Source of the DNA: Candidatus Levyibacteriota bacterium
GTDB lineage: Bacteria; Patescibacteriota; Microgenomatia; Levybacterales; UBA12049
NCBI GenBank assembly: GCA_963716145.1
Contig: OY970292.1
Span: 1,095,404-1,142,061 of the forward strand
DNA length: 46,658 nt
Direction of reading: 5' to 3'
The position numbers and the translations under genes are program-made. The notes below the pieces were generated by a model. The model was not told where the DNA came from. It searched no databases and worked only from the letters and a program-made list of their open reading frames with translations. Positions 12,197-22,101 of this stretch are shown here, piece by piece. Each line of letters begins with the position of its first letter. The first letter of the stretch is position 1.

Positions 12197-12787
12197 TTAT
12201 AGTTTTTTGTAGGCATACTGAATACGTTGGATAACGGTAATAAAAGACAGAAAAATTGATAGAACGAAGATCCATTCAGCGATATTTAATCCGTATACAG
12301 CAATGTTTGGAAAAACCAAATATGCAAATAAGGAAAGAAAGATAAGAACAAGGCGCTCAGGCCTTTCAATCAACCCAATTGCGAAATCTACTTTATTATT
12401 GCTTCTTAGCTCTCCGTGCGCTCTTGTGTAGCTGGTAAGGAAGGATAAGAGTAAAAGCAGAGCAATGATTTCCCATCTGACAATTCCTCCGAATGAGAAA
12501 GCGGTAATTGTCAAAAAATCACCTACGCGGTCCAGGGTGGAATCAAGAAATCCGCCGAAGCTTGTTACTTTGTTGTATTTTCTGGCAATCATTCCGTCAA
12601 TCAGGTCAAAAAAATAACCAAAAAGTGCGACAAAAGCAAGAAGATACCAGTGTTTTATAACAAAGACAAAAAACAAGAGAGGTGGTATACTTCCTATGAG
12701 AGTTAGAACATTTGGATTTGCGCCGGATAAGTATTCCGCCAAGGGCTCAAAATATTTTTCGATTTGCGGTTTTTTATTACTAAGCAT
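12197..12787 (-). CDS. CDP-alcohol phosphatidyltransferase family protein
   Basis: Complete signature D-G-x2-A-R-x8-G-x3-D-x3-D in DLIDGMIARKYNKVTSFGGFLDSTLDRVGD. Polytopic membrane protein of 196 aa. Confidence 0.85.
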   Translation of the reverse strand: MLSNKKPQIEKYFEPLAEYLSGANPNVLTLIGSIPPLLFFVFVIKHWYLLAFVALFGYFFDLIDGMIARKYNKVTSFGGFLDSTLDRVGDFLTITAFSFGGIVRWEIIALLLLLSFLTSYTRAHGELRSNNKVDFAIGLIERPERLVLIFLSLFAYLVFPNIAVYGLNIAEWIFVLSIFLSFITVIQRIQYAYKKL

Positions 12788-12795
12788 ATGCGAAA

Positions 12796-12889
12796 ATTTC
12801 TAATTTCTAATTTCTAATTTCAAAAGATTAAACTTAGCCTTAAAATAATTAGAAATTTGATATTTGAAATTGGTATTTATTTGAAATTT
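12796..12889. repeat. Opposed 7-nt-period arrays in the divergent promoter region
   Basis: (ATTTCTA)x3 plus ATTTCAA at 12796-12823. TTAGAAA TTTGATA TTTGAAA TTGGTAT TTATTTG at 12849-12883 is in the opposite orientation (AATTAGAAATT versus AATTTCTAATT). Confidence 0.8.
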
Positions 12890-13543
12890 ATGTATAAAGT
12901 TGACCTGCATACGCATTCAATCATATCACATGATGGAGGGATTTCGAAGAAACAATACGCCCGCCTTTTGGAAGAAGGTATTATTGATTGTATTGCAATT
13001 ACAGACCATAATGAGACAAGTTTTGCCAGAGCTCTCAACGATACACTCGGCCAAAAAATTATAATAGGAGAGGAGATTAAAACACTAGAGGGAGAAATAA
13101 TCGGATTATATCTTACTAAAACAATTTCTCCGGGATTAAGCGCGCAAGAGACTATAAGTCAAATAAAAAACGATGGGGGATTGGTCTATATTCCGCACCC
13201 TTTTGAGATTGGTAGAGACAGCTTGCAAGAAGAGGATTTAAAAACGATAATTAAAGATGTGGATATTATTGAAGTTTTTAATGGGCGCGGTATTTTGCGG
13301 GGCAAGCCGCAAATTGCTTATAAGTTGGCACTTACTGAAAAAGCCGCTATGGCATCAAGCAGTGACGCGCATTGCAGAATGGGAATTGGGACATCTTTTA
13401 GTGTCACCAAGCAATTTCCCACAAAAGAAACATTGCTGAAATTATTAATGGAGGCAGAACTTCAACAAAAGCACGCCCCAATGATTTCACTATTATGTCC
13501 AGGTATAAATAAGGTAAAAAATAAGCTGGTGTTAGGAGTGTGA
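12890..13543 (+). CDS. PHP-domain metal-dependent phosphoesterase
   Basis: MYKVDLHTHSIISHDG... is typical of the PHP N-terminus. The ATG at 12890 is preferred over the upstream TTG at 12857, which lies inside the repeat array. Confidence 0.75.
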   Translation: MYKVDLHTHSIISHDGGISKKQYARLLEEGIIDCIAITDHNETSFARALNDTLGQKIIIGEEIKTLEGEIIGLYLTKTISPGLSAQETISQIKNDGGLVYIPHPFEIGRDSLQEEDLKTIIKDVDIIEVFNGRGILRGKPQIAYKLALTEKAAMASSSDAHCRMGIGTSFSVTKQFPTKETLLKLLMEAELQQKHAPMISLLCPGINKVKNKLVLGV

Positions 13544-13546
13544 AAT

Positions 13547-14455
13547 ATGTTAAAAGATACATTATTCTTAATTAATCCCAAATCAAAAGGCGGAAGTGCA
13601 ATGAAAATTTGGAAAAATGCCTGCAAGAAATATTCTGAATTGCCAAAGGAGCCTATTGATATCACAAAAGTAGATATATCTTCTCTTATCAAAAAAGAAA
13701 ATCCCAAAGTAGTCGTCATAGCAGGCGGAGACGGAACAATAAATTCTGTATGCACTGCAGTTTCAAGGATGGAGAAGAAACCTATTCTTAGTATTGTGCC
13801 GCTTGGTCTTGGGAACGCTCTATCGTACTGTCTAGGCGTTGAGAGCATGGATAAAGCAGTTGACGTTATTATGAAGCAGGAAAAAAAGATCACTGTTGAT
13901 TTGATGAAGACAAATATTAAAGTTCACGATAGGGGAGTTTTTAGTATCAGTGTCGGGTTTAGCGCAAGAATTGTTTTTCAGAGACAAGCATATAAGTATA
14001 TTGGTTTCGGATCATATATTCTTTCGGGACTTCAAAGTTTTTTTTCTCATCCCGAGAATGAAATTACATTTACAATAGATAAAAGCGTCACGCTAACTGC
14101 AAAAGCATCATCACTTATTGTTGCAAACAGTCCTGTTATCGGCCTGAACTATATTGTCGCGCCAAATGCCAGACTTAATGATGGATTTTTGGATTGCACT
14201 CTCCTATCAACCAAATACGCTGATCTCACTAATATGCGCTTAAGAGGGTTTAAGCACCCATTATATTCTGAATTGGGTAAAGTTCGCTTTAAGGCACGCC
14301 ACATAAGTATAGAAGGTGAACCTTTTGTGCAGATTGACGGTGATCCGGTAAAGCAGAGTGAAAAAATTGAGATAGAAATAATGCCAAAACAGCTTACTTT
14401 TCTTCGCAATATTGATAAGAACATAGATCAGGAATATTTGCCGTTTGTTTCATGA
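13547..14455 (+). CDS. Diacylglycerol-kinase-family lipid kinase (YegS/BmrU-like)
   Basis: DAGK catalytic motif VVVIAGGDGTINSV; 302 aa; starts 4 nt after the PHP gene. Confidence 0.8.
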   Translation: MLKDTLFLINPKSKGGSAMKIWKNACKKYSELPKEPIDITKVDISSLIKKENPKVVVIAGGDGTINSVCTAVSRMEKKPILSIVPLGLGNALSYCLGVESMDKAVDVIMKQEKKITVDLMKTNIKVHDRGVFSISVGFSARIVFQRQAYKYIGFGSYILSGLQSFFSHPENEITFTIDKSVTLTAKASSLIVANSPVIGLNYIVAPNARLNDGFLDCTLLSTKYADLTNMRLRGFKHPLYSELGKVRFKARHISIEGEPFVQIDGDPVKQSEKIEIEIMPKQLTFLRNIDKNIDQEYLPFVS

Positions 14456-15006
14456 TAAAAGAAATATATTTTGTATGGTGGTTTTTTGCTCCGGCCGGAA
14501 TAGCCAACATTGCAGCTTTCTTTTCAGGTAAAATTCCCCTCCTTAAATCCTATTCTTACCCAATTGATTTCAACGTCAAAGTTAGAGGTAGAAGAATTTT
14601 TGGATCCAATAAAACAATGCGCGGATTAATTTTTGGAATAATTTCGGCAATAGCCATTGTTTACTTGCAAGTATTTTTATTCAATCAATTTGCTTTCATT
14701 AAAAAAATTATCCCTTTGGATTACAATTCGATAAACCCAATTCTTCTTGGTGGTCTTGCAGGTTTTGGTGCTCTATTTGGTGATGCGCTTAAAAGTTTTT
14801 TTAAACGCCAAATAGGAGTAGAACCGGGAAGGAGTTGGTTTCCTTTTGATCAGATCGATTATATCCTGGGAGGAATATTATTCACCTCATTCTATATAAA
14901 CTTAAGCAGGGGAGAATATGTTACACTGCTTTGGGTTTGGTTTTTACTTCACCCTCTAACTACATTGCTGGGATATGTCTTCAAACTCAAAGACAGCCCG
15001 CTTTAG
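14452..15006 (+). CDS. CDP-archaeol synthase (CarS, DUF46) family CTP-transferase homologue
   Basis: PAGIANIAA...GSNKTMRGLIFG...GDALKSFFKRQIGVEPGRSWFPFDQIDYILG matches the CarS pattern (G-x-KT-x-RG, GD...SF-KR, DQ-D). It overlaps the lipid kinase stop by 4 nt (ATGA). Confidence 0.7.
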   Translation: MIKEIYFVWWFFAPAGIANIAAFFSGKIPLLKSYSYPIDFNVKVRGRRIFGSNKTMRGLIFGIISAIAIVYLQVFLFNQFAFIKKIIPLDYNSINPILLGGLAGFGALFGDALKSFFKRQIGVEPGRSWFPFDQIDYILGGILFTSFYINLSRGEYVTLLWVWFLLHPLTTLLGYVFKLKDSPL

Positions 15007-15035
15007 TATAAAGTATTAAGAAGTAAGTATAAAGT
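15007..15035. repeat. 7-nt-period array, 5' arm flanking the four-helix-bundle gene
   Basis: TATAAAG TATTAAG AAGTAAG TATAAAGT fills the whole gap between TAG (15004-15006) and ATG (15036). Confidence 0.8.
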
Positions 15036-15410
15036 ATGAACGGATCTAAAATAAAATCTTTTACAGATCTCATTACTTGGCAAAAAGCACATGCATTAGT
15101 GCTTATTATATACAAATTTACAAACGCATTCCCTAGAACAGAGACTTATTCATTAATTGATCAAATGAGAAGATCAGCTATTTCAATAACTAGTAATATT
15201 GCGGAGGGATTTTCTAGAAAAAGTAAAAAAGAAAAAATGCAATTTTATTATATGGCCCTTGGATCTACTACAGAGCTTCATAGCCAATTGATATTGTCAA
15301 AAGACTTGGGATATTTAAAGCAAGCAGAATTTTATGGAGTTATAGAAAAAATAGTTGAAGTAAATAAATTAATAAATAGTTTAATTAAGAGTTCTCAAAG
15401 TTATACTTAA
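15036..15410 (+). CDS. Four-helix-bundle protein (23S rRNA intervening-sequence protein / Avd-like family)
   Basis: FTDLITWQKAHALVLIIYKFTNAFPRTETYSLIDQMRRSAISITSNIAEGFSR...ALGSTTELHSQLILSKDLGYL is the typical family signature; 124 aa. Confidence 0.85.
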   Translation: MNGSKIKSFTDLITWQKAHALVLIIYKFTNAFPRTETYSLIDQMRRSAISITSNIAEGFSRKSKKEKMQFYYMALGSTTELHSQLILSKDLGYLKQAEFYGVIEKIVEVNKLINSLIKSSQSYT

Positions 15411-15440
15411 TACATACTACTTTATACTTAATACTTTATC
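15399..15440. repeat. 7-nt-period array, 3' arm flanking the four-helix-bundle gene
   Basis: TACTTAA TACATAC TACTTTA TACTTAA TACTTTA. ACTTTATACTTAATACTTTAT is the reverse complement of the 5' arm apart from a 7-nt gap. Confidence 0.8.
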
Positions 15441-16728: not shown

Positions 16729-18753
16729 TCATGAATTAGGGATTGTTTTTTTAAATTTTAGATAGATTAATCCCGTGAGTATTATAACTAAAGAAGTTAA
16801 ACTTATTATAACACCAATATCGACCCATTTTTGAGGCGTGTAATAAACTTCAAAGCTGTAATTTCCGGTCTTTGGTAAAATAAAACTATTAAACCCTTCG
16901 TAGTTCTTGGTTCTTGGTTCTTGGTTCTTGGTTCCACGAAGACTCCATCCAGGATCATAACCTTCAGCAAATACTAAAGTGCTATTTTTTTGTGCATTTT
17001 TTAAATTAACAATATATTTTGTTGGATTAATATATTTATAGTCTATTTTCATGTTTGGTTGGGGGCTCCAGAAGTGATCTTTGGGATCAGTAACTTCATA
17101 AACCCCGATCCTACCAAATCCATCAATTCTCTTTAGCCAAGGGATAGAATTTATTTCTTTTAATGTTTCTAGATATGATTTTTCATCGTACTTTCTATCC
17201 GTGAGGAAAATTTCCCCCATGCTGTCGTAAGGAACAATTATATATTTAACAGATGCTTCTTGTAGCACCTTTAAGGTTTCCCCTTTTTTTAATATTGCTA
17301 TATCTTCTTTGGGTGAATTTAATTTGAATAAGTCATTTGCAGGAATTGATGGATGATTATTTGAAAAGAAAGCAAACCTTTGTATTTGCGGGATCCAGAT
17401 CGTTCTATAAAACTTTTTATCTGAGGAAATAAATTTTTCTAATTTTATATATTCATTGGGAATTTGTACAGATTTAAATGTTCCCCCGAGTTCGCCAAGT
17501 AGGGCAGGGGAAGTAAGAAGTAAGAAGTAAGAGGTAAGAAGTAAGATGAAAAGATTTTGAAATTTGAAATTTGAAATTTGAAATTTTTGTTGAACCTTCA
17601 ACCAATTATATATTTGGGAAATGCTGTAGGGAATTAGTATTGAATAAGAAATGGCAATCAACGTATACCATTTTGTTGGATCTCTGAACATTAAGAAGCC
17701 TGGAACATGTTCAAACAGCCATAGATATAAGCCGCCAAATGGCTCCTGAGCTCCTTTTGCTAGAAAAGCACCTATCAGGCCCAAGATGGCAAAATACAAT
17801 AAATTGTTTTTGGTTCTCTGGTCTTTGGTTTTAGTAATAAAAAAAAGACTGCTAAATGCTAGAATTGGTAGAGTTAAAAATTCAGGTTTCATGAAATATG
17901 TTTTACCAAAAATATTCTCAGGCCAGTTGGGATGTAAAAGAGAAATTGTATTTTCGAGCTTTGCAAAACTGAAAAATTTTACAGCATCAATTGAGGAGTA
18001 AGCAGAACCCAGTTTTTTAATAGGATTTTGATTAACTAAAACTGTCGGTAAAATCCAAAAGAAGTTAAGAAGTACTAAGGTAGCTAATGGGGTTAGCAGC
18101 GATAAAATATATTTTAATGGCTTTCTAAATTGCTTGGTTATGAAGAAATAAATTATAAGCGCGGTTATCGTAATGTATAAAAACCGGATATCAAAAATAG
18201 CCTCAATACTTAAAGCTAATCCTAAGGATAATAATTTTTTAAATTCTATTTCGTTAGAGTCAAAAATATCAATAAAAATACTTAGTATCAAAGGAGAAAG
18301 AGCATAAGCCATCGCCACTCCTAATATCTGTCCACCTCCTATAACCATCAGGATATATATGTTAAATGTGTAAATAAAAGCCGCCAAGAGAGAAAAATCG
18401 TTTTTCGGCATTATTTTTTTATAAAGTGTGATTGATGAATAAATAGAAATAATTAGCAGTGGGAATAAATAATATATTCTTTCAATAACGCTCCAATGCA
18501 GGCCCAAGAATTCGCCTAAGAAAGTTATGGGAATACCTATGTTAAAAAATATCCATAACAAGGGAGCTGAAAATGCTCCCATACCCATCCCCAAATTCAT
18601 ATCCCATGCATAAAGAGGAAATGAATAGAGGGGATACATTGATTTATAATAAGGCCAGAAATCACCTCCTGTAATAACTCCAGGCAAAAACCACGGACTA
18701 TATACAACATAGATAATGAGTAAAGAAATAAAGTAATAAATTTTTGTTTTCAT
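16729..18753 (-). CDS. Large polytopic membrane protein, GT-C-like glycosyltransferase candidate, with C-terminal extracytoplasmic domain and terminal TM
   Basis: 674 aa. About 12 or more hydrophobic helices are followed by a soluble ~250-aa domain and a final TM. The N-terminal GGDFWPYY loop resembles the acidic first loop of GT-C enzymes. Architecture-based call. Confidence 0.4.
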   Translation of the reverse strand: MKTKIYYFISLLIIYVVYSPWFLPGVITGGDFWPYYKSMYPLYSFPLYAWDMNLGMGMGAFSAPLLWIFFNIGIPITFLGEFLGLHWSVIERIYYLFPLLIISIYSSITLYKKIMPKNDFSLLAAFIYTFNIYILMVIGGGQILGVAMAYALSPLILSIFIDIFDSNEIEFKKLLSLGLALSIEAIFDIRFLYITITALIIYFFITKQFRKPLKYILSLLTPLATLVLLNFFWILPTVLVNQNPIKKLGSAYSSIDAVKFFSFAKLENTISLLHPNWPENIFGKTYFMKPEFLTLPILAFSSLFFITKTKDQRTKNNLLYFAILGLIGAFLAKGAQEPFGGLYLWLFEHVPGFLMFRDPTKWYTLIAISYSILIPYSISQIYNWLKVQQKFQISNFKFQNLFILLLTSYFLLLTSPALLGELGGTFKSVQIPNEYIKLEKFISSDKKFYRTIWIPQIQRFAFFSNNHPSIPANDLFKLNSPKEDIAILKKGETLKVLQEASVKYIIVPYDSMGEIFLTDRKYDEKSYLETLKEINSIPWLKRIDGFGRIGVYEVTDPKDHFWSPQPNMKIDYKYINPTKYIVNLKNAQKNSTLVFAEGYDPGWSLRGTKNQEPRTKNYEGFNSFILPKTGNYSFEVYYTPQKWVDIGVIISLTSLVIILTGLIYLKFKKTIPNS
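16903..16937. repeat. (GTTCTTG)x4 heptad array inside a CDS
   Basis: GTTCTTG x4 then GTTCCAC. On the coding strand it gives ...NQEPRTKNYEGF. Confidence 0.9.
17511..17584. repeat. (AAGTAAG)x5 and (TTGAAAT)x4 heptad arrays inside a CDS
   Basis: 17511-17545: AAGTAAG x5 (one AGGTAAG). 17557-17584: TTGAAAT x4. They encode ...KFQISNFKFQNLFILLLTSYFLLLTS... in the minus-strand ORF. Confidence 0.9.
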
Positions 18754-18776
18754 TAAAATTAAGTATTATGTATATA

Positions 18777-19778
18777 CTATTTATTTTTTAGCTGTGTTTT
18801 TTTAAAAGCTTGATATTTTGTTATTTTTATAAATAAATAAACTTCATGGATAATACCAACAAGCAATAGTAGATAAACCCAGAGAGAGAGCTTGTTTGTT
18901 AAGAATTGGTCTACATGATTAAGTAGTATAGACGAAATTATAAACATAAGTAAGCCTAGAATTAGGGATAAATTTTTACTTTGTTTATAGGTAAAATCAG
19001 ATATTATTAAAAGTCCTAAAATTCCAAATGCTACTCCACTATAAATTTCTTTTAGGAAGATAATATCTAACAATATAAATAAGAATGATATTATGGTTAG
19101 AGTATAAGTATACGGAAGTGCTCTTTTTAAGAGAGTATGCCAAATTATATAAAAGAAAGCTGGTAAAAAATAGATAAGAGAGTTTAAAACAAAATCAATA
19201 TTAGTAAAAGAACTCAATAATTTTTTAAAAATAAATGTTATTAAGGATTTTTTATTCGTGGAAATGCTCGCTTTGGAAAATTGATATCCTGAAGCAAAGT
19301 TGCTACCGCTATTGTCAACTTCTACAAAATTTTTACTATTTCCATTAAGTGAAATTAATTCAAAGTCATAAATTTTTCCTTTGGAATTGGAAATTGGTAA
19401 TATTCCAAATGGGAAAAGTAAATTATTGTATATTATTCCTTCCTTATATTTATTTTCTGTATACCATTTTTTAGAATTTTTTTCTTTTATCCTAAACAAA
19501 AGATTATCTTCATTATAGTAATCAGATTTTATTATTTTTGTAAATTTAATAAAAATTATGCCTAAATTATTGTCCGTTGCTTTAAATTCTCCCGTCAATT
19601 TATTCCCCTTAAATAATTTATGTGATTCTGTAAATTTGAGATTAGAATTATCTTCTCTGACAACTATTACAGAAAAACTGGAATATGGATTGAAAAAGAG
19701 AGAGCATGCCGCACCCAGACCTATGAGAATTATAGATATTGATAGAATAATGATTTTTCTTTTAAGATCTTTTTTCAT
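18777..19778 (-). CDS. Membrane protein (N-terminal anchor, ~170-aa external domain, C-terminal multi-TM block), hypothetical
   Basis: 333-aa intact ORF in an operon-like array. No recognisable motif. Confidence 0.4.
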   Translation of the reverse strand: MKKDLKRKIIILSISIILIGLGAACSLFFNPYSSFSVIVVREDNSNLKFTESHKLFKGNKLTGEFKATDNNLGIIFIKFTKIIKSDYYNEDNLLFRIKEKNSKKWYTENKYKEGIIYNNLLFPFGILPISNSKGKIYDFELISLNGNSKNFVEVDNSGSNFASGYQFSKASISTNKKSLITFIFKKLLSSFTNIDFVLNSLIYFLPAFFYIIWHTLLKRALPYTYTLTIISFLFILLDIIFLKEIYSGVAFGILGLLIISDFTYKQSKNLSLILGLLMFIISSILLNHVDQFLTNKLSLWVYLLLLVGIIHEVYLFIKITKYQAFKKTQLKNK

Positions 19779-22101
19779 AATATTTATAAGTAACTAAATA
19801 AACAAAGGTAAATATGAAGGTTAGTGCAGTTATTAGTGTCCCAATGTAGAAGTATTGCTGGGGTTTAAAGTACAAAATAATCTGAAAGTTGATGCTTCCA
19901 TCTTTATTTTCACTAAATTTGCCCGGGTAGTTGTTCTTTATATATTTTTCATCCAATAGCCAAACATCCCTTTGATTAGTGGAGAATTTATTAGATGTAT
20001 CAAAAATATTTTTTTGGAGAAATAGTCCAAACTCATCTATATTGAGCAATTTATTGTCACTTGGGCACTCAGTGATATTATTATTGAATACATCTCCTTT
20101 ATTGCATAAATCAGTATTCGTATTATTAAAATACATTTTCCAGCCTGCACTATAAGAGTCTCTGAATGTAAGTTTCTTTTGACCTTTAAAATTATGTATT
20201 GATATCTTATACATAACAGGATTTACCTTCTGGTACTTTATATTGTCCATAGATAAAATAGGAAATTTATTTAATACAGAATATAAGACATAATTTCCAT
20301 TGCTGCTTTTGATAATAGCTTTATTTGTGATTGCTTTTATTAAGTTTTGATCTTGGGAGGCAATGCTTTTTTGGTCGAATAAATATGATTGTTTAATTTC
20401 ATTTGGAATATTGTGCGTAACCATAATATAGTTGATATTGAACTCCTCTAGAAGAGAATTAATTTTTTTATAATCTTTATTTTTAATATAGCTATTTAGT
20501 CTTTCTGCGTCCTTTGAGCGAACCAAAGAGATATCTCCAGTTATGTCATTAATACCTGTAAGAATTTTAAGAGGAGATGTGCCAACGAATGCATTACTTG
20601 AATTGTTCTCTGTTATGATTGAATATGCAGCCTTATTAAAAGGAAAACTTAGTATATTTGTTGTAGGTTGAATTTTATATTTGACTTCATTTATAAAATT
20701 GATATATTCATTTGGGAATAGAACAGTTCCATAGATATTTGTTGTTGTCCATATAGGTCTGTTGATTATATTCCTTATAGGAATTGCGTTCATAAAAATA
20801 ATAAGAATTGCTAGAAAATATATGTATAATTTTATCTTGGGGTAGTTTTTGTTTACTATTATTATTGAAAAAGTAATTGAAGATGAGTATAAGATTACGT
20901 AGCCTAAGGCAAACTTGTCATAAAAATTTCTGAATATAAAAAATCCTGGAATATGACCAAGTAACAAAAAAACATCTTTAAGTGGACCAATGTTTACCGT
21001 AAAGAGAAATAATGAAATTACAAATGATATTAAAATTATAAAATATGCTAATGATTCATTTTTTGTTAGAGTCTTTTGCGCTTTAAATATACCTAGTAAA
21101 ATTAGAATAACTAGTATTATATTTAATAGTAATATTTTGTCATAATATAAATATATGTGTTCTAATCCCCAGCCGAAATCAATAGAAATTTGCTTGTGAT
21201 AAAGATTTAATAATGGGTAGAATATATTCCCAGATGCAGTTGATAAAACCGTTTCCCTAAAACTATTCGCTATGCTACCTGAAAAAATACCTTCACCAAC
21301 ATTATTTTTTCCTACATTTAAATATGCGATAAAAAACGAAAGTAAATAAAAGCTTTGGGATAGAAGTAGTGTTACAGCAAATACCATTGCTCTTCGTATG
21401 TAGATTATTCTTTTATCTAATAAAGGAAAGATTATTATTAATCCAATCATTATAGGTAGCACGAAACCAATTAACCACGGAATTGAGAATAATCCGAGTG
21501 AAAAAATTGTGCACCAGATAATATTGCCAAATAAATAAATTGGGTGTGAGGTTTTAAGATATCTTAAGAAATAAAAACATATTATTGGAATTAATCCAAT
21601 TAGCCATACGGAATTATAGAAACTAGAGAATTGACTCACTATTAAAATTGGTGACAATATATAGAATAGTGATCCTAAATATATTTCTGTCGTGTACTTA
21701 TGGCTGTCATGAATGATTTCCGAAAAAACTTTTTGGAAAAAATAAAATCCGAGAATAAGTGGCAGAGAAAATGAAGAGTAATCCAAAATTATTTTTGAGC
21801 CCAATAGGCTATCTAGTATTGACCAAAAAAACGCAAAAGGAAGTAGGAATTGTGCAGGATTGTTTATTGAAACAATCGAAAAATTAAACCAAGAAAAATA
21901 AGTAATATTTCTTAGGAAAAGATTAGGATAGATATAGATAAGTTTTGAGTCGTCACCTCCTGCAAATAATTTACCGCCAAAAATAAAGTAGGGAAGTATT
22001 AACAATGCGATAGTTGTTAAAAGATTAAAAATAAGGTGGATATTTAATTTATCTGTTATTTTTTTAAAAAAAACCATTAAATTAATTCTTCGTTGCAACA
22101 A
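19762..22101 (-). CDS. Large polytopic membrane protein, GT-C-like (AftD/DUF3367-like N-terminus) glycosyltransferase candidate
   Basis: 779 aa. The N-terminal loop AGGDDSKLIYIYPNLFL resembles the GDTKLDL..DP..FL opening of AftD-type proteins. Many TM helices, a C-terminal soluble domain and a terminal TM follow. Alternative start at ATG 22077. Confidence 0.4.
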   Translation of the reverse strand: MLQRRINLMVFFKKITDKLNIHLIFNLLTTIALLILPYFIFGGKLFAGGDDSKLIYIYPNLFLRNITYFSWFNFSIVSINNPAQFLLPFAFFWSILDSLLGSKIILDYSSFSLPLILGFYFFQKVFSEIIHDSHKYTTEIYLGSLFYILSPILIVSQFSSFYNSVWLIGLIPIICFYFLRYLKTSHPIYLFGNIIWCTIFSLGLFSIPWLIGFVLPIMIGLIIIFPLLDKRIIYIRRAMVFAVTLLLSQSFYLLSFFIAYLNVGKNNVGEGIFSGSIANSFRETVLSTASGNIFYPLLNLYHKQISIDFGWGLEHIYLYYDKILLLNIILVILILLGIFKAQKTLTKNESLAYFIILISFVISLFLFTVNIGPLKDVFLLLGHIPGFFIFRNFYDKFALGYVILYSSSITFSIIIVNKNYPKIKLYIYFLAILIIFMNAIPIRNIINRPIWTTTNIYGTVLFPNEYINFINEVKYKIQPTTNILSFPFNKAAYSIITENNSSNAFVGTSPLKILTGINDITGDISLVRSKDAERLNSYIKNKDYKKINSLLEEFNINYIMVTHNIPNEIKQSYLFDQKSIASQDQNLIKAITNKAIIKSSNGNYVLYSVLNKFPILSMDNIKYQKVNPVMYKISIHNFKGQKKLTFRDSYSAGWKMYFNNTNTDLCNKGDVFNNNITECPSDNKLLNIDEFGLFLQKNIFDTSNKFSTNQRDVWLLDEKYIKNNYPGKFSENKDGSINFQIILYFKPQQYFYIGTLITALTFIFTFVYLVTYKYYEKRS

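Follow-up and report, generated by a model that had tools for sequence, protein, structure and literature searches.

The stretch of DNA considered here, referred to throughout as the window, comprises 46,658 nucleotides from a Candidatus Levyibacteriota bacterium of the phylum Patescibacteria (contig OY970292.1), and forms the last 46.7 kb of a genome that consists of a single contig of 1.14 Mb and is estimated to be 93% complete. The subject is a cluster of four genes within it, encoding a CDP-alcohol phosphatidyltransferase, a metal-dependent phosphoesterase of the PHP family, a soluble lipid kinase and a homologue of the archaeal enzyme CarS, which may together activate scavenged lipid and furnish it with a head group. 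These four families had been named in an earlier note on this DNA, made from its letters alone; a listing of open reading frames (ORFs) and profile searches confirmed all four genes where that note had placed them, and the encoded proteins are intact and full length next to their homologues. The features are as follows (aa, amino acids; bp, base pairs):

12197-12787, minus strand: CDP-alcohol phosphatidyltransferase of the phosphatidylinositol phosphate (PIP)/archaetidylinositol phosphate (AIP) synthase type; 196 aa; PF01066.
12788-12889, no strand: divergent intergenic (promoter) region; 102 bp, AT-rich; read from the sequence.
12890-13543, plus strand: PHP-family metal-dependent phosphoesterase; 217 aa; assigned by fold and metal ligands.
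13547-14455, plus strand: soluble DgkB/YegS/BmrU-family lipid kinase; 302 aa; DAGK_cat and YegS_C domains.
14452-15006, plus strand: CarS-like CTP:lipid-phosphate cytidylyltransferase; 184 aa; PF01864.

The plus-strand genes run in the order PHP, kinase, CarS, and not kinase, CarS, PHP as had been stated, while the divergent orientation of the transferase gene was just as described. The three plus-strand genes are translationally coupled: the kinase stop and the CarS ATG overlap in a 4-nucleotide ATGA, in agreement with the earlier description, but the stop codon of PHP is followed by the ATG of the kinase after a gap of 3 nucleotides (TGA AAT ATG, with a GGAG shortly before) rather than the 4 that had been given. 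The longest form of the PHP reading frame begins at a TTG at 12857; the alternative ATG at 12890 is the likely start, as judged from the sequence, and gives a protein beginning MYKVDLHTHS, with the HxH motif at its N-terminus. Three tandem TAATTTC heptads lie within 12788-12830, in the divergent promoter region that separates the transferase gene from the PHP operon, and may represent a candidate site for a regulator. Scans for promoters and terminators gave results no better than those for shuffled sequence, and this includes the single promoter-like site at 12819-12846 (plus strand).

The kinase matches both DAGK_cat (PF00781, 63.1 bits) and YegS_C (PF19279, 43.5 bits); its matches in the PDB are to bacterial diacylglycerol (DAG) kinases, YegS and DgkB, and alignment to 4WRR shows that the GGDGT nucleotide motif is present. 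It is a candidate DAG (or acylglycerol) kinase that would make phosphatidic acid (PA), and the simplest reading is that it would supply the CarS-like enzyme with its substrate by phosphorylating scavenged DAG, or else monoacylglycerol at a stage before the acyltransferase fusion described below.

The CarS-like protein scores 78.2 bits against PF01864 (cut-off 22) in a match that spans positions 2-173 of the 175 in the profile. Against PF01148 (CTP_transf_1), the family of CdsA, it gives a partial match of 30 bits over positions 169-230 of 264 (62 positions), and is thus not a full-length CdsA, true CdsA genes in the phylum scoring 82-180 bits on this profile. It matches the Aeropyrum pernix CarS structure 5GUF (E 5.7e-10), the alignment bringing together the GD..SF.KR and DQ.D motifs of the CTP/Mg-binding core, and residues K54, D111, S115, K118, R119, D133 and D136 are invariant across 19 homologues from the Candidate Phyla Radiation (CPR). 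No CdsA was found anywhere in the genome, where the CarS gene is both the sole match to PF01148 and the only gene of the CTP-transferase superfamily; the proposal that a CarS homologue is used instead of CdsA is thus supported. The closest homologues come from metagenome-assembled genomes (MAGs) named Candidatus Levyibacteriota, with up to 71% identity, and the 80 closest are almost all from Patescibacteria. “Archaeal-type”, as applied to this protein, is a family label only, since the CarS-like family also includes large branches that are bacterial. One record titled Candidatus Nanoarchaeia archaeon (L110, DPANN) has a CarS 45% identical to that of the window, with a PHP gene adjoining, and in the CarS tree this protein pairs with a sequence labelled Peribacteria (Peregrinibacteria) with support of 100/100; this could mean that ultrasmall bacteria and archaea have shared the gene, or else that there is a problem of binning or labelling.

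For the transferase, the family assignment is confirmed by a score of 69 bits on PF01066 (CDP-OH_P_transf), whose cut-off is 22, and the signature of CDP-alcohol phosphotransferases, D-x2-DG-x2-AR...G-x3-D-x3-D, is intact from residue 61. Among the more specific models it scores 153.4 bits on that for AIP synthase (AIPS; NF040950, cut-off 180), 96.1 bits on that for PIP synthase (PIPS; NF045883, cut-off 170) and 37 bits on that for pgsA (cut-off 109.1), while its sequence matches in the PDB are all PIP synthases. The residues R94, S132, Y133, K135 (as R), P153, R155 and R195 of the Mycobacterium tuberculosis enzyme PgsA1 (MtPIPS), whose roles in binding inositol phosphate have been established by mutagenesis (PMC4634129, PMC6506517), are conserved. 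In sister Levybacteria the gene for inositol-3-phosphate synthase (MIPS) abuts the transferase gene, in convergent orientation (L059, L064, L066, L068, L069 and L076), or lies 1.4 kb from it (L061 and L062). In the CarS tree the window falls within a Levybacteria-type clade of 14 rows (support 100/98), in seven of which MIPS stands beside the transferase and in two more of which it is 1.4 kb off, three of the remainder being contig fragments. The MIPS-linked sister transferases score like that of the window (138-143 bits on the AIPS model and 95-98 bits on the PIPS model), and their acceptor-site residues are identical to those in the window; on the strength of these equal scores and identical residues, the window transferase is taken as the orthologue of enzymes genomically linked to MIPS. 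Inositol phosphate is the most likely head group, given a PIP/AIP-synthase-type transferase and the adjacency of MIPS in sister genomes.

Conservation of the cluster was assessed in two sets of genomes: an even sample of 201 from the phylum, and a synteny set consisting of the 80 closest CarS loci, among more than 526 relatives, from species-representative genomes, found by searching with an alignment of six CarS sequences and examined for neighbours within 4 kb. A CarS-like gene occurs in 37 of the 201 genomes and a full-length CdsA in six, none of which has a separate CarS gene. A CDP-alcohol transferase is present in 34 of the 37 genomes with CarS, as against 40 of the 164 without. Around the 80 CarS loci a transferase is nearby in 64, a PHP orthologue in 61 and a kinase in 16; 55 of the loci have the complete transferase-PHP-CarS triad, and 12 have all four genes. 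Chance does not account for the arrangement, since CarS is found with these neighbours time and again, in dozens of genomes at species level. In Saccharibacteria the triad is co-directional, while in Levybacteria-type loci the transferase is divergent and the kinase often lies between PHP and CarS, as in the window; all 16 loci with the kinase in that position are of Levybacteria type. A cyclophilin gene fills the slot next to the transferase in the window and in its two closest relatives. Ten records with CarS loci carry the titles Gammaproteobacteria, Limnocylindria/Limnocylindrales or Sulfotelmatobacter (L060, L065, L066, L067, L070, L076, L078, L101, L133 and L135); their clusters are of the Levybacteria or Saccharibacteria type, and they are probably CPR MAGs that have been taxonomically mislabelled.

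Other CPR lineages show two further settings for CarS. In eight of 20 loci it lies directly upstream of rplK, inside a ribosomal operon, with the transferase between rplK and rplA in seven of these eight and nusG directly upstream of CarS in seven; a placement that identifies both CarS and the transferase as housekeeping genes in the lineages concerned. The loci in which CarS is inserted between nusG and rplK, and a CDP-alcohol transferase between rplK and rplA, of the conserved secE-nusG-rplK-rplA operon (L024, L025, L026, L029, L030, L031, L033 and L040) have no phosphatase gene adjacent, and in L024 there is in addition a gyrB gene with an intein. In CPR family f10, by contrast, CarS is followed directly by PgpA, the two pairs being L034:4961-6039 (G105) and L043:4503-7287 (G182); these are the only two of the 201 genomes in which PgpA was found, and in G182 a true PgsA lies upstream of CarS (124.9 bits on TIGR00560, whose cut-off is 109.1). 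A cluster of proteins of about 325 aa in the ESM Atlas combines CarS-like and PgpA domains, though this is a lead only; a 306-aa CarS reading frame in L042, considered as a possible CarS-PgpA fusion, was rejected, its N-terminal part having no Pfam match. The module would thus come in at least two flavours within the phylum, one with PgsA and PgpA for phosphatidylglycerol (PG) and one with a PIPS-like transferase and PHP for inositol lipids. From its association with bacterial PgsA and PgpA in other CPR genomes, the CarS-like enzyme is presumed to be a CDP-diacylglycerol (CDP-DAG) synthase that substitutes for CdsA.

The PHP protein scores 22.7 bits on the Pfam PHP profile (PF02811), below the cut-off of 26.4, but its membership of the family is confirmed by predicted fold and metal ligands: the AlphaFold model (pLDDT 96) is a canonical (beta/alpha)7 barrel, Foldseek matches it to PHP structures with a probability of 1.0, and the metal ligands H7, H9, D15, H40, E62, H103, D159 and H161 are invariant among 30 orthologues. 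In the 61 synteny loci that have it, the gene is directly upstream of CarS, often overlapping it, or beside the transferase; PHP orthologues of at least 40% identity always have one or other of these neighbours, whereas more distant PHP paralogues do not. (The tally of PHP genes over 42 genomes took in one unpublished genome, G154, on which no claim rests.) PIP synthases use inositol phosphate as acceptor, so that a separate phosphatase is needed; in mycobacteria this has still to be identified (PMC6506517), while the PIP phosphatase of Bacteroides is an enzyme of the PgpA family (PMC9246714). No PgpA (PF04608) was found in the genome, phosphatases of the PAP2 and HAD families lying outside the search, and PHP is unrelated to PgpA in fold. 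As PgpA holds the matching slot in the PG-type CarS clusters, the analogy suggests that PHP fills the slot of a head-group phosphatase, and it is a candidate PIP phosphatase.

Searches of the whole genome for other lipid genes provide the context in which the cluster has to be understood. The absences that the earlier note had anticipated were borne out for CdsA, PlsX, PlsY and ketoacyl synthase, but not for PlsC, since one PlsC-type acyltransferase is encoded, as part of a fusion. This 831-aa protein (G000:C1:560139-562634, corresponding to L045:2140-4635, plus strand) consists of an acyl-AMP ligase, a phosphopantetheine carrier and a C-terminal PlsC-type acyltransferase; it is the only match to PF01553 in the genome, and is adjoined by a gene for an alpha/beta hydrolase of the lipase/LCAT-like type (L045:1122-1820). 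From the four absences it would follow that the organism makes neither fatty acids nor PA by known routes, and the view that it lacks de novo lipid synthesis is supported, in that no complete canonical CdsA/Pls pathway was found. The fusion is a candidate for a self-contained system of fatty-acid activation and lysolipid re-acylation, making acyl remodelling possible, and the genome might plausibly both re-acylate foreign lipids and provide them with new head groups. The cluster transferase is the single CDP-alcohol transferase in the genome. Neither geranylgeranylglyceryl phosphate (GGGP) synthase (PcrB) nor a trans-polyprenyl synthase (polyprenyl_synt) was found, and the one UbiA homologue adjoins a GT4 (MraY/WecA-like) gene.

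Taken together, these observations lead us to favour, by somewhat better than an even chance, a reading in which the cluster is a module for glycerolipid salvage and head-group attachment, running from DAG through PA, CDP-DAG and PIP to phosphatidylinositol (PI). The DgkB/YegS-type kinase would phosphorylate scavenged DAG (or acylglycerol) to PA; the CarS-like membrane enzyme would convert PA and CTP to CDP-DAG, in place of the missing CdsA; the PIP/AIP-synthase-type transferase would then add an alcohol phosphate, most probably myo-inositol-3-phosphate, giving PIP; and the PHP phosphoesterase would strip off the head-group phosphate to leave PI. A sequence of kinase, CTP-transferase, CDP-alcohol transferase and phosphatase had been put forward from the window alone, and it fits both the gene linkage seen across the phylum and the CarS-PgsA-PgpA clusters, the individual activities being those that we infer. 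A broader version of this proposal holds that CarS-family proteins are the general CDP-DAG synthases of Patescibacteria, that PHP is a new, non-homologous PIP phosphatase, and that the module in this genus runs entirely on host DAG and inositol phosphate; this is advanced more tentatively, as a proposition that falls somewhat short of an even chance.

A number of points weigh against the salvage reading and must be set beside it. Several concern the fit to family models: the kinase scores 98.8 bits on TIGR00147, below the subfamily cut-off of 118.65, the CarS-like protein scores 116.8 bits on NF003114, below the equivalog cut-off of 148, and the transferase is below the cut-offs of the three NCBIfam models named above. 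Kinases of the DAGK family, moreover, occur in 112 of the 201 phylum genomes and are not enriched with CarS. In the case of PHP, a search of PDB sequences gave no matches and there is no characterised close relative; the structures closest to it in fold, at TM about 0.69, are those of uncharacterised PHPs, of RNase AM and of a nucleoside-bisphosphate phosphatase, and we know of no PHP enzyme that acts on lipids. Activity of the CarS-like enzyme on PA is an extrapolation, given that characterised archaeal CarS prefers digeranylgeranylglyceryl phosphate over PA and does not complement an Escherichia coli cdsA mutant (PMC9385802).

The most substantial difficulty concerns the supply of the acceptor. 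No match to PF01658 or PF07994, the two MIPS profiles, was found in the genome (PF01658, whose control was complete, having replaced PF07994 as probe because the control of the latter missed Corynebacterium), and tblastn with CPR MIPS proteins gave a best E value of 0.07 and no MIPS. The genus is represented by five genomes, that of the window and those of four congeners; none of them yielded a MIPS, and CarS is retained in four of the five. Across the phylum sample it is present in only four of the 201 genomes, and in one of the 37 with CarS. The MIPS-linked Saccharibacteria-type locus G151/L094 lacks PHP. MIPS has been lost in the window's lineage, and with no MIPS in genome or genus, inositol phosphate must be scavenged from outside or made by an unrecognised enzyme, or else the acceptor differs. 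Two PfkB-family kinases were considered as inositol kinases but could not be assigned as such: both score below every equivalog cut-off, and the one has a class I fructose-bisphosphate aldolase as its neighbour, the other metK/ahcY. A genome of the same family as that of the window (G219, 88% complete) has MIPS and no detected CarS-like gene, and the two genes are patchily, and in part independently, distributed in that family.

The absence of MIPS from genome and genus counts in favour of a first alternative, in which the architecture is unchanged but the acceptor in this MIPS-less genus is glycerol phosphate, so that the transferase would make phosphatidylglycerol phosphate (PGP), PHP would take the phosphate off PGP, and the product would be PG rather than PI. 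The conserved acceptor residues mainly bind phosphate, which glycerol phosphate also possesses, the genome has just one CDP-alcohol transferase, and PG is the more general bacterial lipid. The proposal is nevertheless unlikely. The transferase is a close orthologue of the MIPS-linked enzymes, with the same family scores and identical acceptor residues, and the pgsA model scores far below that for AIPS (37 bits against 153); CPR genomes that have CarS and make PG use a true PgsA together with PgpA; and a search of the genome for GpsA gave weak Rossmann-type matches only (24.5 bits), none of them convincing.

A second alternative leaves the inositol head group in place but removes PHP from the final step, so that its substrate would be the pyrophosphate that CarS releases, with hydrolysis serving to pull that reaction, or else it would produce inositol phosphate from some scavenged precursor in genomes that have no MIPS. 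It is true that the tightest coupling of PHP is with CarS, which it directly precedes and often overlaps, that most of the modules with PHP are in genomes without MIPS, that the MIPS-linked L094/G151 does without it, and that nucleotides or RNA are the substrates of the proteins nearest to it in structure. Set against this, PHP is kept in eight of the 11 MIPS-linked loci, the same slot in PG-type clusters is taken by PgpA, a bona fide family of lipid head-group phosphatases, and the product of a PIP-synthase-type enzyme needs a phosphatase, for which the cluster holds no other candidate. We regard such a role for PHP as quite improbable.

A third possibility, and a very improbable one, is that the route handles archaeal lipids, with host archaeol being phosphorylated, converted by CarS to CDP-archaeol and then to archaetidylinositol phosphate, which PHP would dephosphorylate. 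Both CarS and the transferase do score best on archaeal models (NF003114 and NF040950 respectively), characterised CarS favours isoprenoid substrates (PMC9385802), and the DPANN-labelled MAG described above has CarS beside a PHP gene; but searches of the genome yielded neither a GGGP synthase nor a polyprenyl synthase, the single UbiA homologue has the GT4 gene as its neighbour, the genome contains the fatty-acid-activating acyltransferase fusion, relatives' CarS genes are linked to bacterial PgsA and PgpA, and the closest 80 homologues of CarS are almost entirely patescibacterial. De novo synthesis of archaeal ether lipids can be rejected, neither of the two synthases having been found.

The salvage module may also be compared with systems already known, to each of which it bears a partial likeness. 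One is the two-step bacterial pathway to PI, as in Mycobacterium (Ino1, CdsA and PgsA1) and Bacteroides (BT_1526 as MIPS, BT_1523 as PIPS and BT_1525 as PIP phosphatase), with which it shares a PIPS-type transferase of the same motif and pocket, the need for a separate phosphatase and, in the window's sister genomes, the clustering of MIPS with the transferase. It differs in having a CarS-like enzyme rather than CdsA, PHP rather than a PgpA-family phosphatase, and a DAG-kinase-type gene in the operon, as well as in the want of MIPS from both genome and genus. The presence of that kinase gene suggests that entry is from scavenged DAG rather than from PA made de novo. The module would be a two-step pathway to PI in which non-orthologous enzymes replace the usual ones and entry is by salvage.

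Archaeal CarS and AIPS (A. pernix CarS, 5GUF; Archaeoglobus fulgidus CarS; Methanothermobacter thermautotrophicus AIPS) belong to the same two families, provide the best profile matches, and share the order of reactions, namely CTP activation, transfer of inositol phosphate and dephosphorylation; the window proteins, however, score below the equivalog cut-offs, have no context of GGGP synthase, digeranylgeranylglyceryl phosphate synthase or polyprenyl synthase, and are encoded by a bacterial genome with fatty-acid-handling genes, in a phylum where homologues are linked to PgsA and PgpA. In the DAG recycling of Firmicutes by DgkB, CdsA and PgsA (Bacillus subtilis and Staphylococcus aureus DgkB, PDB 2QV7), a soluble kinase of the DAGK_cat/YegS fold likewise returns DAG to CDP-DAG-dependent phospholipid synthesis, but there the DAG is a by-product of lipoteichoic acid synthesis, whereas in the window it is presumably foreign, and the downstream enzymes here are CarS-like and PIPS-like. 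Finally, the clusters of G105 and G182 resemble that of the window in that the gene for a CarS-like protein, the sole CTP-transferase, has a CDP-alcohol transferase gene and one for a head-group phosphatase as partners; they contain true PgsA and PgpA, as opposed to the PIPS-like transferase, PHP and kinase of the window.

In the literature searched, no paper links CarS to CPR/Patescibacteria or describes the module. Coleman et al. (2019) mention neither CarS nor CPR, and the surveys of CPR genomes that were consulted report incomplete lipid pathways without mention of CDP-lipid synthesis (PMC7242380). What the window adds is the four-gene Levybacteria variant with the kinase, the occurrence of the module throughout a genus without MIPS, and the parallel with PgsA and PgpA.

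Some features of the surrounding sequence may be recorded briefly. Directly after CarS comes a 124-aa S23p reading frame (15036-15410), of the 23S-rRNA-intervening-sequence type with a four-helix bundle; the cassette containing it (15007-15440) is bordered by short inverted heptad-like repeats, GTATAAAGT... before it and ACTTTATAC... after it. Further on, at 16729-22101 (minus strand, GC 0.28), three large reading frames of 674, 333 and 779 aa, none with a Pfam match, stand at the head of a long surface-glycan region that includes GT2, GT4, UDP-GlcNAc 2-epimerase, DegT aminotransferase, acetyltransferase and FdtA genes, so that the lipid cluster adjoins an envelope locus concerned with surface glycans.

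The wider interest lies in the question of how CPR bacteria obtain and tailor their membrane lipids, for which the module offers concrete enzymes, among them an entry kinase for scavenged DAG. The apparent occupation of CdsA's role by a CarS-like protein bears on how strict the “lipid divide” between archaea and bacteria really is at the CDP-lipid step, and the retention of the module across a genus without MIPS suggests a dependence on inositol phosphate from the host. The PIP phosphatase of mycobacteria is still being sought (PMC6506517), and an enzyme of the PHP family is a candidate for it. If the proposal is true, PHP would carry out the step that is still unassigned in mycobacteria and archaea, and the module as a whole would amount to a true exchange of head groups on stolen lipids.

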